The notes beneath the pieces are model-generated. The model was not told the origin of the DNA. It did no database searches and saw nothing but the letters and a program-made list of their open reading frames with translations. The position numbers were made by a program, and so were the translations under genes. A stretch of DNA of 6,491 nucleotides from a virus (lineage: Duplodnaviria > Heunggongvirae > Uroviricota > Caudoviricetes), in the IMG/VR virus record IMGVR_UViG_2660238215_000013, positions 1-6,491 of that record; one strand, written 5' to 3'. Numbering within the stretch: position 1 is the first letter of the stretch; each line of letters begins with the position of its first letter. Positions 1,240 through 5,107 of the stretch are shown here, piece after piece.

Positions 1240-1776
1240 TTAAGCATAATCGAACGCTTCTCTCATAGGTGAATACAAAATGAACTCAGCAATACTCAAC
1301 CACTGATCAACACGGCGTCGGCATGTAATCAACGCCCACTCTGGGTACTGTTCGTTTAGTAGCTCGGCCATCCTTCTCTTACTCATCCCTCGTCCCACAT
1401 AACGCTGACTCAGGACATTAAGCAGCCCGGGATGATCCGCCAGTACTTCGCCAATAACCCTGTCGATTATTAATGCCTCTGCATCAGTACAATGCGCCAG
1501 CCAGCTCTTTTGCTTACCGTTAATCATATCCCGCAAAAAAGCCTCAAGTTCAGACTTGTTCAGACCTGCTTTTTTCATCCTCCGGAGCGCCTCGTTAATT
1601 GCCGTTTTTGTCAGCTTTTTAGAGGCCAACAACTGGTTGAACATATTCCCCGTCTTACCGCCGCCAATATACGACCAGCGCCCCCACATGCGCAGTTTTC
1701 CCTGAATCCAGACACTTTCCAGCGTGGTGAGACGAAGGTGCTCTCCGCTTTTTCCTGTGTTCGTTGGGTAAATCAT
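1240..1776 (-). CDS. Putative late-gene antiterminator Q (178 aa). Function assigned mainly by synteny (last gene before PR'/tR'/tRNAs, after ybcO-like gene), not by a verified family match
   Basis: ORF-track frame 1240..1896 trimmed to the ATG at 1776, which overlaps the upstream stop as ATGA (ATG 1776-1774, TGA 1775-1773). Product MIYPTNTGKSGEHLRLTTLESVWIQGKLRMWGRW...SPMREAFDYA. The 40 codons upstream of this ATG overlap the ybcO-like gene in another frame. Confidence 0.6.
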   Translation of the reverse strand: MIYPTNTGKSGEHLRLTTLESVWIQGKLRMWGRWSYIGGGKTGNMFNQLLASKKLTKTAINEALRRMKKAGLNKSELEAFLRDMINGKQKSWLAHCTDAEALIIDRVIGEVLADHPGLLNVLSQRYVGRGMSKRRMAELLNEQYPEWALITCRRRVDQWLSIAEFILYSPMREAFDYA

Positions 1777-2063
1777 AAATAACCGTCCTTTCTCCAGATC
1801 TCTTGTGTGCGAAAAACACCTTCTGCATGCATCAGGCGCAATTCTTCTTTGGTGTAATCGCTGGTTTTTACTCTCCCGTCGATTAAATCGTGGCATGAGT
1901 TACAGGCAATCGCCGCCTGCATATCGTGTGGTTTTGTCGCTGTTCCGCACGTCCCCGCCAGCCTGTAATGCGCCAGCACAGAAGTTTCGGGATTGTGATT
2001 GCAGTAGCCAGGAATTCTGACTGTGCACATCTGCCCCCGCGCCGCTTTACGTAAATCCACCAT
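1773..2063 (-). CDS. ybcO: YbcO-like DUF1364 protein (96 aa), a Cys/His-rich nin-region protein
   Basis: MVDLRKAARGQMCTVRIPGYCNHNPETSVLAHYRLAGTCGTATKPHDMQAAIACNSCHDLIDGR... matches the remembered DLP12 YbcO pattern (MADLRKAARG..C.VRIPG.CN.NPETSVLAH.RL.G.CGT.TKP.D..A.IAC..CHD.ID.R). Start ATG 2063-2061 overlaps the upstream stop as TAATG. Confidence 0.85.
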   Translation of the reverse strand: MVDLRKAARGQMCTVRIPGYCNHNPETSVLAHYRLAGTCGTATKPHDMQAAIACNSCHDLIDGRVKTSDYTKEELRLMHAEGVFRTQEIWRKDGYL

Positions 2064-2662
2064 TACGCAAACTCCAGTAACTGCGCGGCCACATTTTCGA
2101 CTTCCTCCGGAGAGGAAAATTTACGGAACAGGATCCAGTTCCACAGCACATTCAGTACAGATTTATAAACCTGCTGAAACTCGGTTTCGTCCATGTTCGC
2201 AAATGCGATAGATTTTGCCCTGCGCCCACGACTACCGTCCGGATAAAAATGTTCGGTGTAAAATCCGGCCTGAATGGTTACCCATTCGCGAAAAGCGTCA
2301 AAGGACTTGAGTAAGGCCGTATCCCGGGTTCTGCAAGTCGTAACGGTGTTAAGGTATTGCTCTGCGGCATCACTCAGGGCTGGCGTATGTTCCCGACCTA
2401 CTGATTCGCACAGGAAATCAACGAAACCGGACACCAGTTCTCGTTCGCGAGGCGTGATCGCCCCACCGTTCGGAGTCCAGTAATCGAATCCCAGTTGCAG
2501 GAGTTTGAAAAAACGCTTGTGGAACGCGTAGTTACGCACTCGCTTAAAGTCCGCGTGTATCCACTCACCTATTTTGATTTGATGCAAAAAATCGCAACTC
2601 TCCGGCGTCGCCGGGAGAAGTAATCCGGAAGAGGTTTGTTTGACCAGTTGTATATGCGCCAT
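2063..2662 (-). CDS. Conserved lambdoid nin-region protein, probably DUF1367 family (199 aa)
   Basis: ORF-track frame 2063..2674 begins at a TTG; the first ATG (2662-2660) has GGAG 6 nt upstream. Product MAHIQLVKQTSSGLLLPATPESCDFLHQIKIGEWIHADFKRVRNYAFHKRFFKLLQLGFDYWTP... Family assignment is from memory of prophage nin-region proteins and is unverified. Confidence 0.65.
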   Translation of the reverse strand: MAHIQLVKQTSSGLLLPATPESCDFLHQIKIGEWIHADFKRVRNYAFHKRFFKLLQLGFDYWTPNGGAITPRERELVSGFVDFLCESVGREHTPALSDAAEQYLNTVTTCRTRDTALLKSFDAFREWVTIQAGFYTEHFYPDGSRGRRAKSIAFANMDETEFQQVYKSVLNVLWNWILFRKFSSPEEVENVAAQLLEFA

Positions 2663-2721
2663 TGCTGTCTCCAATGGCGCTGTAGGTTGCCAGTTGTTCA
2701 GGCTGGCTTACGAATTATAAC

Positions 2722-2895
2722 TCATTCCCGAATCACCTTGAAACCGAGCCTTTCAAGATATTCAATGAATGCCTCGATAGATAAAATTACATGATTATCA
2801 GGGATTAACGTTGCGTAGATAACTTCCCCATTCTCAACGCGCACAGCATAGAGGCCATTTTCACTAAAAATTTCACGCAATTCTTCGATTTTCAT
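2722..2895 (-). CDS. Small acidic hypothetical protein (57 aa), not in the ORF track
   Basis: Hand translation: MKIEELREIFSENGLYAVRVENGEVIYATLIPDNHVILSIEAFIEYLERLGFKVIRE, stop TGA 2724-2722. SD-like GGAAGGA 6 nt upstream of the ATG. Lies in the AT-rich patch between the A-B-C terminator and the DUF1367-like gene. Confidence 0.5.
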   Translation of the reverse strand: MKIEELREIFSENGLYAVRVENGEVIYATLIPDNHVILSIEAFIEYLERLGFKVIRE

Positions 2896-2976
2896 CAACA
2901 GAATCCTTCCAGATAAATAGCACTCCCCTGCTCGGGGTCCATCCCTCTTCTCCCTGCGCGCTACTTAAGTGCATCG

Positions 2977-3004
2977 ATTCTAGTCAGGCATACCCGCTTA
3001 TCAA
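2977..3004 (-). promoter_or_regulatory. Candidate sigma70 promoter: -35 TTGATA (2999-3004), 16-bp spacer, -10 TAGAAT (2977-2982)
   Basis: Hexamers read on the minus strand about 80 nt upstream of the 57-aa ORF and just downstream of the A-B-C terminator. Could give lysogen expression of the 57-aa ORF independent of phage antitermination. Confidence 0.35.
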
Positions 3005-3057
3005 CAAACGAAGGTCGGTTTAGTGGAGGAATCGGCTAAAACTTGATCTGTTAAAGT

Positions 3058-3083
3058 AAAAAACCCGCCGAAGCGGGTTTTTT
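3058..3083 (-). terminator. Strong bidirectional intrinsic terminator closing the A-B-C operon
   Basis: aaaaaacccgccgaagcgggtttttt: 6-bp GC stem (3063-3068/3073-3078), loop UUCG on the minus-strand RNA, flanked by A6 and T6. Starts 6 nt after the stop of gene C (3089-3091). Confidence 0.75.
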
Positions 3084-3088
3084 GTATA

Positions 3089-3481
3089 TTACATACTCTC
3101 AATGTCATTTTTTAGTGAGTGCTTGTGTAACTCCATGGAGTAATCAACATCACGAAGAGTTTTTTCAATCTGCTTGCTTCTCAGGGTGGCAAGCGCATTA
3201 TCAATTGACACTTTTTCTTCATCTGAAGCATCAGCTCTCATTTTCGTAAGAGTCTTACGAGCCCTTGCCACATCCACCTTGAAACGTACGTCCTCTATGC
3301 TAGGTACGTTAACAAACGTAAGAAGTAGCAAAAAGAAGTGAGCAATAACAACAGCAACCCCAGGGAGAAATGCGTTGATATCAGCAGGTAACCCAATATA
3401 TGCGCTAGCCTTGACCAATAGGTAATTTGCCACCGGTGTGCACCACGCTTGGCTTGCAACATACTTAGATTGTTGAATCAT
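3089..3481 (-). CDS. Gene C of the candidate cassette: 130-aa predicted membrane protein, one clear TM segment (FLPGVAVVIAHFFLLLLTFVNV) and a charged, probably helical C-terminal tail. No family recognised
   Basis: ORF track 3089..3481. ATG 3481-3479 overlaps the stop of gene B as ATGA, with GAGG 6 nt upstream. Low GC like A and B. Confidence 0.7.
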   Translation of the reverse strand: MIQQSKYVASQAWCTPVANYLLVKASAYIGLPADINAFLPGVAVVIAHFFLLLLTFVNVPSIEDVRFKVDVARARKTLTKMRADASDEEKVSIDNALATLRSKQIEKTLRDVDYSMELHKHSLKNDIESM

Positions 3482-3717
3482 GAAGTGCCTCGCGTTAAAT
3501 CACGCTGAACCTCACTCAACGTGGACGCGAGCTCACGTGCATCCTTTGCATCCAACTGAACTTCGCAATAATGCCTAACTCCACATCGATCTATATAAGT
3601 AAATTTGAGTGTCTTACTTGGTTTAAGCCAAACCAAAAAATGATATACAGCAAAACGAGCCAACATAAAGGCGGCAACAAAAACCGTAATCATCAACATG
3701 ACACTTAAATAAGGCAT
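3478..3717 (-). CDS. Gene B of the candidate cassette: 79-aa small membrane protein, N-terminal TM helix (residues ~3-30) then a ~50-aa soluble tail with a Cys pair (DRCGVRHYC). No family recognised
   Basis: ORF track 3478..3717. Start is 8 nt after the stop of gene A (TAG 3728-3726) with AGGT 6 nt upstream. Stop overlaps the start of C. Confidence 0.7.
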   Translation of the reverse strand: MPYLSVMLMITVFVAAFMLARFAVYHFLVWLKPSKTLKFTYIDRCGVRHYCEVQLDAKDARELASTLSEVQRDLTRGTS

Positions 3718-3725
3718 ATTATTAC

Positions 3726-4595
3726 CTATACGATTCGACGTTCAGCTGCGGCGCGATGCCGTACAACCTGCGTGATAATGTATGCTGGATTCCCCAATAC
3801 ACCATTAGTTTCTTTGACTCTTTTTGTCACATTCACTACAAAAAGATCATCTTTACTGAATGACGCTTCGTTTAAATTTACTCGCTCAAGAAAACCAGCA
3901 TCCGCCATCTTAACCTTTACATCCTCGCCGTCTGGCAATACCATCCTCCAATCTGTATCGGAAGTAAAGCTCAGCTTAGAAAACTTGACGTTTAAGGTCA
4001 ATGAGTCTTCATGTGTATGTTGTACAACCGTATTATTCACTTTTTTAAAAGAAACAGATTGCTCTTGCGAAATAGAGACAATCTCCTCCCCACTTGAGTT
4101 TTTTACTCTAAACGACGAGTTTTTTTCAGTTTGCAGAGGAGTGTGTACCAATTTACTCATTTCATTGCGGATCGTAGAGTTTGTAACGAGCTTTTGTACG
4201 TCATTTGAACACTCAAATCGCTCATTATCAACAACAAAAGTCGCTCGGTTATTGGCTTCATCTATAACAACCTCATGTGGCTTTCGCCCTCGCAACCATT
4301 CTACAACCCCAACCAAACTCCCAGCACTTGCGCCGGTGGCAACAGAAAGCCCCAAGAGTTGCAAAGTAGATAAACTACCCAAAACAGAGACAAGAACAGT
4401 AAAAGATCCTTCCTGAATTGCCTTAATACTAACCCTAGTTGTTGCAGTCTCACCGTGGATAATTTTCTCTGCATTATCAATCAAATTACTTAATGAAGAC
4501 AGAGCATCACCAAGCATTTTAGCATCGATCTCATTATTCGCATATGCATCCCCAGCATATGCAATCTCAAGCTCTGTTACCTGTTGGTCGGTCAT
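3726..4595 (-). CDS. Gene A of the candidate cassette: ~289-aa protein with soluble N-terminal ~60 aa, a ~35-residue hydrophobic segment (FTVLVSVLGSLSTLQLLGLSVATGASAGSLVGVV; one long TM or a TM hairpin), and a ~190-aa C-terminal domain. No family recognised
   Basis: ORF track gives 3726..4613. The ATG at 4595-4593 has GGAG 9 nt upstream, whereas the ATG at 4613 has only A/T upstream, so 4595 is preferred (4613 remains possible). 870-nt frame in low-GC DNA, coupled to B and C downstream. Confidence 0.75.
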   Translation of the reverse strand: MTDQQVTELEIAYAGDAYANNEIDAKMLGDALSSLSNLIDNAEKIIHGETATTRVSIKAIQEGSFTVLVSVLGSLSTLQLLGLSVATGASAGSLVGVVEWLRGRKPHEVVIDEANNRATFVVDNERFECSNDVQKLVTNSTIRNEMSKLVHTPLQTEKNSSFRVKNSSGEEIVSISQEQSVSFKKVNNTVVQHTHEDSLTLNVKFSKLSFTSDTDWRMVLPDGEDVKVKMADAGFLERVNLNEASFSKDDLFVVNVTKRVKETNGVLGNPAYIITQVVRHRAAAERRIV

Positions 4596-4714
4596 GAAGT
4601 TCAACTCCACCATAAAAAATATGCAAAATAATTAACAGTATTTTCACTTTATGGCGGGTGCGTTGAGGATGCCTGACACATCAGAGGTGGCGGGGGTTTA
4701 CCCCGCCTGGTCTC

Positions 4715-4870
4715 TTACTCCTCAGGTTCGTAAGCTGTGAAGACAGCGACCTCCGTCTGGCCGGTTCGGATTCGTACCTCGCAGAGGTCTTTCCTCGTTA
4801 CCAGTGCCGTCACTATGACGGTTAAACAGATGACGATCAGGGCGATTAACATCGCCTTTTGCTGCTTCAT
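4715..4870 (-). CDS. hokD: Hok-family type I toxin (51 aa), HokD/RelF-like
   Basis: MKQQKAMLIALIVICLTVIVTALVTRKDLCEVRIRTGQTEVAVFTAYEPEE: single TM plus the conserved Hok C-terminal motif. Matches my recollection of K-12 Qin HokD. AAGGAG 9 nt upstream of the ATG at 4870. The ORF-track entry 4715..4927 is the same frame extended 19 codons upstream. Confidence 0.85.
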   Translation of the reverse strand: MKQQKAMLIALIVICLTVIVTALVTRKDLCEVRIRTGQTEVAVFTAYEPEE

Positions 4871-4991
4871 AGCCTGCTTCTCCTTGCCTTTCGGCGCGTA
4901 AGAGGCTAACCTACATGTGCAAGTCATAGATATGGCCTCAGATTAATGTTAAGCGTCTTGCCGGACGCGTAATGTTAACTGGGGCTTTTCT

Positions 4992-5027
4992 CTATCTGCC
5001 GTTGGTGTTCATGCCCGAGGCAGATAG
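4992..5027. repeat. 9-bp inverted repeat (ctatctgcc ... ggcagatag) with 18-nt spacer in the hokD upstream leader region
   Basis: 4992-5000 is the exact reverse complement of 5019-5027. Could be a structured RNA element of a hok/sok-type leader. Confidence 0.6.
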
Positions 5028-5085
5028 CCTCAAGCACCCGCAGCAATTCTACTTAACTCTCGCTTTACCGCAAACCGTTTTTACC

Positions 5086-5107
5086 CGATATGGGAATTCC
5101 CATATCG
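5086..5107. repeat. Perfect 22-bp palindrome CGATATGGGAATTCCCATATCG centred on GAATTC
   Basis: Reverse complement equals itself. Lies 9 nt downstream of the 34-aa peptide stop and ~215 nt upstream of the hokD start. Candidate dimeric-regulator operator or a 9-bp-stem RNA hairpin in the hok leader. Confidence 0.9.

Follow-up and report, generated by a model that had tools for sequence, protein, structure and literature searches.

An open reading frame on the minus strand of the window (the whole 6,491-nt stretch of DNA analyzed here), at 3726–4613, raises the question of what kind of protein it encodes and what this protein might do. A sequence-only reading of the locus had pictured the product of this frame, gene A, as a polar N-terminus followed by a long hydrophobic stretch and a beta-rich C-terminal part. 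It left open which of two ATGs is the start codon, and it pointed to a long open reading frame on the opposite strand.

Gene A Starts at the Second of Two In-Frame ATGs

Counted from its first ATG (4613–4611), the frame of gene A encodes 295 aa; a second in-frame ATG lies at 4595–4593. The start had been called ambiguous because the two ATGs differ in Shine-Dalgarno support, and this doubt was justified. The motif GTGGAG (4610–4605, minus strand) lies 9 nt upstream of ATG 4595 and precedes that ATG only; a purine-rich element was looked for upstream of ATG 4613 and none was found. All 26 close homologues are 287–302 aa long, nearly all of them 288–289 aa, and begin with M-T/S-x-Q at the position of ATG 4595. 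The RefSeq annotation (WP_000132062.1) gives the gene a length of 870 nt. The upstream ATG is limited to two E. coli versions of the locus (the window and locus L002) and is missing from all other homologues; the ATGAC start with its GGA/GGAG motif is common to the homologous loci. Thus, homologue N-termini, annotated length and Shine-Dalgarno motif settle the choice: gene A starts at ATG 4595, spans 3726–4595 on the minus strand and encodes 289 aa, the numbering used below.

All 15 homologues compared keep the sense frame of gene A open. The pN of this frame was 0.17–0.40 against a pS of 0.75–0.83, with a strong excess of third-position changes, as expected under purifying selection. The minus strand codes, and gene A is a real gene.

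Upstream of the gene, a region specific to the cassette described below (4596–4653, minus strand) holds the Shine-Dalgarno motif and a promoter-like block. In most homologous loci this block consists of a GTGAytt-like element, about 17 nt, and then TGTATCTT; it is weak but conserved. A generic promoter scan of the region returned no sigma-70 promoter, so the promoter of A is a putative one.

A Is a Homologue of the Mycobacteriophage Defense Protein gp29

A is a member of the LAPAL/PDC-S42/PHROG 3243 family and is homologous to gp29 of the mycobacteriophage MichelleMyBell. The model NF053583 (LAPAL_fam) matched A with 208.6 bits (cutoff 60; residues 16–287 on model positions 2–291 of 292), phrog_3243 with an E-value of 1.3e-67, and the PADLOC model PDLC05015 of PDC-S42 over its full length with an E-value of 1.2e-46. 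The scores on NF053583 and PHROG 3243 are far above cutoff. gp29 matched the same models (181.4 bits, 7.3e-81 and 1.6e-16, respectively). In a profile alignment (hhalign), our 83-sequence family profile and gp29 aligned essentially over their full length (267 columns, 98.6% probability, E 5.9e-16). The motif position is also conserved: it reads L28-G-D-A-L32 in A, with the central A-P replaced, and LAPAL in distant members. Over 89 sequences, L28 never varies, and A31 and L32 hardly do. The identity between A and gp29 is only ∼19%, so function may have drifted between them.

The family is very large (>2,800 clusters at 50% identity) and spans at least Pseudomonadota, Bacillota and Actinomycetota. 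A megablast search of deposited phage genomes with gene A gave no match, tblastn with A found one Vibrio element only, and Gram-positive phages were reached only when a LAPAL-type relative served as query. Pfam had no match for A or for its two neighbors B and C, and a literature search found no publication on PDC-S42, the LAPAL motif or WP_000132062. PADLOC lists the family as a defense candidate, picked out because members lie within BREX, DISARM or type I RM loci (10.1101/2024.01.29.577857), and draws no link to gp29/gp30.

gp29 acts together with gp30 in cluster N mycobacteriophages (DefenseFinder MMB_gp29_gp30). According to one report, the MichelleMyBell prophage cuts the plating of Tweety by 4–5 logs, and Tweety gp54 counteracts this (PMC8549241). 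A second describes gp29/gp30 as behaving like abortive infection, in that phages still adsorb and inject their DNA (PMC6426606). A third describes gp29 as toxic and gp30 as a putative membrane protein (PMC11856565). The system was reported in Actinobacteria only (10.1101/2023.03.30.534874).

A and gp29 are alike in being full-length homologues (289 versus 310 aa), in being prophage cargo outside the structural genes and in being followed directly by a gene for a small membrane protein. They differ in host, Actinobacteria as reported there versus a gammaproteobacterium here.

A, B and C Form a Cassette of Exchangeable Prophage Cargo

Gene B (3478–3717, minus strand; 79 aa) begins 8 nt past the stop codon of A. 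Its product has an N-terminal transmembrane (TM) helix and conserved K-P and L-T-Y-x-D-x-x-G motifs, and it matches phrog_27630; in strain 2000-3039 RefSeq leaves the gene unannotated. The ATG of gene C (3089–3481, minus strand; 130 aa) overlaps the stop codon of B (ATGA). C matches phrog_26468 and has one or two TM helices and a charged, helical-looking C-terminal tail. The hydrophobic helices of B and C rate on a par with those of HokD and gp30. An intrinsic terminator (3058–3083, minus strand) starts 5 nt past the stop codon of C; its RNA folds at −15.7 kcal/mol with a z-score of −4.4, and a U-run follows. The generic promoter/terminator scan missed this clear terminator, which folding confirmed.

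The sequence-only reading contained neither the family identity of A nor the two membrane-protein genes conserved along with it downstream. Each of the gammaproteobacterial loci examined, from Enterobacterales, Orbales and a Vibrio PM2-like element, has genes like B and C behind A. The A-B-C order is kept even where A is down to ∼25% identical, and the divergence of B and C keeps pace with that of A. The co-conservation of A-B-C is thus strict across the Gammaproteobacteria examined, whereas PADLOC treats PDC-S42 as a one-gene system. Many other family members lack a membrane partner. We considered B and C as gp30 homologues and rejected this, with hhalign probabilities below 1% (0.1% for the B profile and 0.7% for the C profile). 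gp30, 67 aa in length, has two hydrophobic helices, and its gene overlaps the end of gp29. By this profile comparison B and C are analogous, not homologous, to it, and there are two such partners here instead of one.

The cassette (3080–4653, minus strand) is a 1,574-bp exact insertion/deletion in the nin-type region of a lambdoid E. coli prophage, between hokD and DUF1367 and outside the structural modules. In a blastn alignment with the empty-slot prophage L052, window positions 1336–3079 and 4654–5086 align with 4 nt between them. In prophage L053 a Doc toxin-antitoxin pair occupies this slot. The terminator hairpin is found in both prophages and is common to all cargo variants of the slot. 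The cassette occurs in 4 of 5,426 complete E. coli genomes. It is, then, exchangeable cargo in a variable prophage slot.

The Hydrophobic Stretch of A Is Predicted to Lie in a Globular Domain

The layout first proposed for A, with its polar N-terminus, hydrophobic stretch and beta-rich C-terminal part, proved correct. The AlphaFold model (pLDDT 87) has three domains, all encoded on the minus strand. The N-terminal domain (residues 5–112, 4260–4583) is ferredoxin-like, with the order beta-alpha-beta-beta-alpha-beta, and holds the family motif. A middle alpha/beta domain (residues 117–183, 4047–4247) carries an invariant R143 and a near-invariant P153-L154. The C-terminal domain (residues 192–281, 3753–4022) is an OB-like five-stranded barrel with the predicted order beta1-beta2-beta3-alpha-beta4-beta5 and invariant W216, D232 and F246; it can be compared with the OB-fold domains that bind single-stranded nucleic acids (SSB, PriB, RPA). 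Three segments quoted in advance as suggestive of beta structure coincide with strand regions of this model (117–130, 192–207 and 251–263). In sequence searches of the PDB, neither A alone nor the family profile found more than chance-level matches, and the BFVD structure matches were uncharacterized viral proteins only, one of them from the cluster N phage Pipsqueaks.

The hydrophobic stretch (residues 63–101, 4293–4409) begins with G63–V97, 35 uncharged residues in a row that are rich in G, A, S, L and V, in agreement with the ∼35-residue Gly/Ala/Ser/Leu stretch originally described. Its small-xxx-small repeats (G88, G92, G96) are followed by a basic motif, W-L-R-G-R-K. The Kyte-Doolittle 19-residue profile of A peaks at 1.85 (residues 67–85) and 1.72 (residues 80–98), above the classical TM threshold of 1.6. 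Across 83 diverse relatives, hydrophobicity is highest in this stretch (median maximum 1.56 inside versus 0.79 elsewhere).

Is A then a constitutive integral membrane protein, with the 35 residues forming a TM hairpin or a re-entrant loop? The two peaks and the conservation of the hydrophobic maximum speak for this, as do the conserved basic cluster R-G-R-K directly after the stretch and a pLDDT that falls to 66–71 in parts of it (66–90 overall). The model itself points elsewhere. AlphaFold, which models no membrane, renders the stretch as a strand and a broken helix (strand 66–72, helix 75–81, Gly-rich loop 82–93, helix 94–101). A continuous helix of about 20 residues is absent, no helix there exceeds 8 residues and part of the stretch is a beta strand of a globular domain. 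On a simple translocon-scale sum that ignores position effects, the best 19-mer of A scored +2.3 kcal/mol (family median +4.2) and none of the 83 relatives reached 0 or below, whereas the TM helices of B (−0.7), C (+0.2), HokD (−4.7) and gp30 all fell between −4.7 and +0.2. The peak in gp29 is only 1.09, so that gp29 has a far weaker stretch than A. On these predictions a classical TM helix in A is not supported, and they give no backing to an over-long helix or to the re-entrant hairpin of the sequence-only reading. We consider a constitutively membrane-embedded A unlikely; A may still associate with the membrane conditionally or peripherally.

A-B-C as a Candidate Abortive-Infection Cassette

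We propose that A-B-C is a prophage abortive-infection cassette with A as its core protein, a three-gene version of gp29-type defense, and we put the probability of this reading at about 55%. Homology to gp29 suggests that the cassette defends against phage, probably in the abortive-infection mode. A, which has no signal peptide by sequence, would be cytoplasmic. Its C-terminal OB-like barrel and middle domain would sense an infection cue. The hydrophobic, small-residue-rich segment of the N-terminal domain would be the business end, either as an interface with membrane partners or as a conditionally membrane-inserting element. B and C, small inner-membrane proteins whose soluble tails are predicted to be cytoplasmic, would restrain A or pass its activation on to the membrane, and an infected cell would then cease to support phage growth.

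This logic of a soluble protein and membrane proteins expressed by a prophage resembles that of lambda RexA/RexB and Sbash gp30/gp31, in which a cytoplasmic sensor and a membrane effector bring about abortive infection. Two relatives of A (L048 and L056) even lie where rex does, directly after a cI-type repressor gene. The resemblance is one of analogy only, as neither system has a sequence relationship to A-B-C. A lacks DUF4747, the RexA-type domain, since it has no Pfam match. RexB has four helices (PMC6426596), whereas the hydrophobic helices of B and C number one or two.

Several points count against the defense reading. The low identity to gp29 and the possible drift in function are one. 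Expression in the lysogen is putative, given that the generic scan returned no sigma-70 promoter upstream of A. Inspection of the conserved columns of A revealed no catalytic motif. What B and C would do is guesswork because the two are not gp30 homologues and many relatives have no such partner. Finally, one relative lies in a block of phage head genes and the NCBI name of the family is "putative phage structural protein," as discussed below.

Alternatively, A-B-C could be an inner-membrane superinfection-exclusion complex that blocks DNA entry, as P22 SieA or T4 Imm do, instead of aborting infection after entry. With B and C, two small membrane proteins make up most of the cassette's products and the cassette is prophage cargo, and Charlie, another cluster N mycobacteriophage, excludes DNA injection with a single membrane protein (PMC6426606). 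The homologous MichelleMyBell system, however, is described as letting adsorption and injection happen. A protein expressed by the attacking phage overcomes it, and this puts the block at a step after entry. The lack of a signal peptide in A and the many family members without a membrane partner also speak against exclusion, which we regard as quite unlikely.

Equally doubtful, in our estimate, is that the cassette has no role in phage defense and is mainly a toxin-antitoxin-like addiction module that stabilizes the prophage, with A as toxin and B or C as neutralizer. The reported toxicity of gp29 and its pairing with a membrane protein would fit, and so would the slot, which directly adjoins hokD/sok and holds the Doc toxin pair in other prophages. 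Yet the founding gp29/gp30 system has a demonstrated anti-phage phenotype, and many relatives are single genes without a candidate antitoxin. Addiction and defense roles of the cassette are compatible with each other.

Most Relatives Lie Outside Structural Modules

NCBIfam calls NF053583 a "LAPAL motif-containing putative phage structural protein," and a role of A in the structure or morphogenesis of the virion would follow from this name. We looked at the genomic contexts of about 15 family members. Just one relative (L054) lies inside a head-gene block, that of a Mu-like prophage, between the Mu F-like and the Mu protease/scaffold genes; this gene is flanked by gaps of ∼200 nt, as a moron would be. 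The window and 13 other contexts (nin region, cI, integrase, satellite-like island, Mu-like early region and defense island) are outside structural modules. Among them, relatives adjoin the integrase gene in Lactobacillus A2, Listeria 188, Bifidobacterium PMBT6 and MichelleMyBell, and one lies in a Mrr/NUDIX island (L055). Together with the places beside cI, these are positions typical of lysogeny genes or morons, and they speak for the defense reading. The cassette is also optional, being confined to the four E. coli genomes mentioned above and missing from nearly all related E. coli prophages. The name is thus at odds with the genomic positions and with the defense role of the homologue gp29, and a structural function of A is very improbable.

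The Antisense Reading Frame Is a Shadow of Gene A

A 214-aa antisense reading frame inside gene A had also been described, and it is indeed present, wholly within the gene at 3772–4416 on the plus strand. Its stop-free run of 229 codons is long: it was matched in 0.04% of codon-order shuffles and in 0.36% of synonymous shuffles of gene A. The run is a real feature in that it is rarer in shuffles, yet it is not conserved. All 14 homologues examined have 4–14 stops in this frame, an 86%-identical E. coli copy among them, and the longest antisense open run kept in any homologue is at most 132 codons. The third codon positions of the antisense frame are those of gene A, and a frame of this type is widely considered prone to long shadow ORFs. 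Comparison of frame conservation and of synonymous and nonsynonymous variation among homologues, the check that had been proposed to decide between the strands, favors the minus strand, and conservation of the plus-strand frame was not borne out. With the sense frame intact in every homologue, we judge the plus-strand frame non-coding and see next to no chance that it is a real gene or a second, overlapping one.

Discussion

The LAPAL/PDC-S42/gp29 proteins as a whole can be pictured as one very large prophage immune family with a common mechanism. The Gly/Ala-rich segment would be a latent membrane-inserting element, comparable to the hydrophobic hairpin of pore-forming colicins. It would stay buried in the ferredoxin-like domain until the OB-like domain reads an infection cue, and would then depolarize the cell; lineage-specific membrane proteins (gp30 in mycobacteriophages, B and C in Gammaproteobacteria) would act as gatekeepers. 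We offer this wider picture tentatively and think it rather unlikely in full. If latent insertion is true, the family would represent a new mechanistic class, that of single-polypeptide sensor-effector abortive-infection proteins.

The family assignment joins three entries that carry no cross-reference in the sources used: the validated gp29/gp30 defense, the PADLOC candidate PDC-S42 and the NCBI "structural" family. It suggests that the NCBI product name of NF053583 should be revised; gene B, for its part, has been overlooked by RefSeq in at least one genome. Although reports confined the gp29 family to Actinobacteria, it has thousands of relatives, with members in prophages of E. coli, Raoultella, Enterobacter, Vibrio, Pseudomonas, Lactobacillus, Listeria and Bifidobacterium. 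The compact 1.6-kb three-gene version in tractable E. coli would offer a route to the mechanism of the family.

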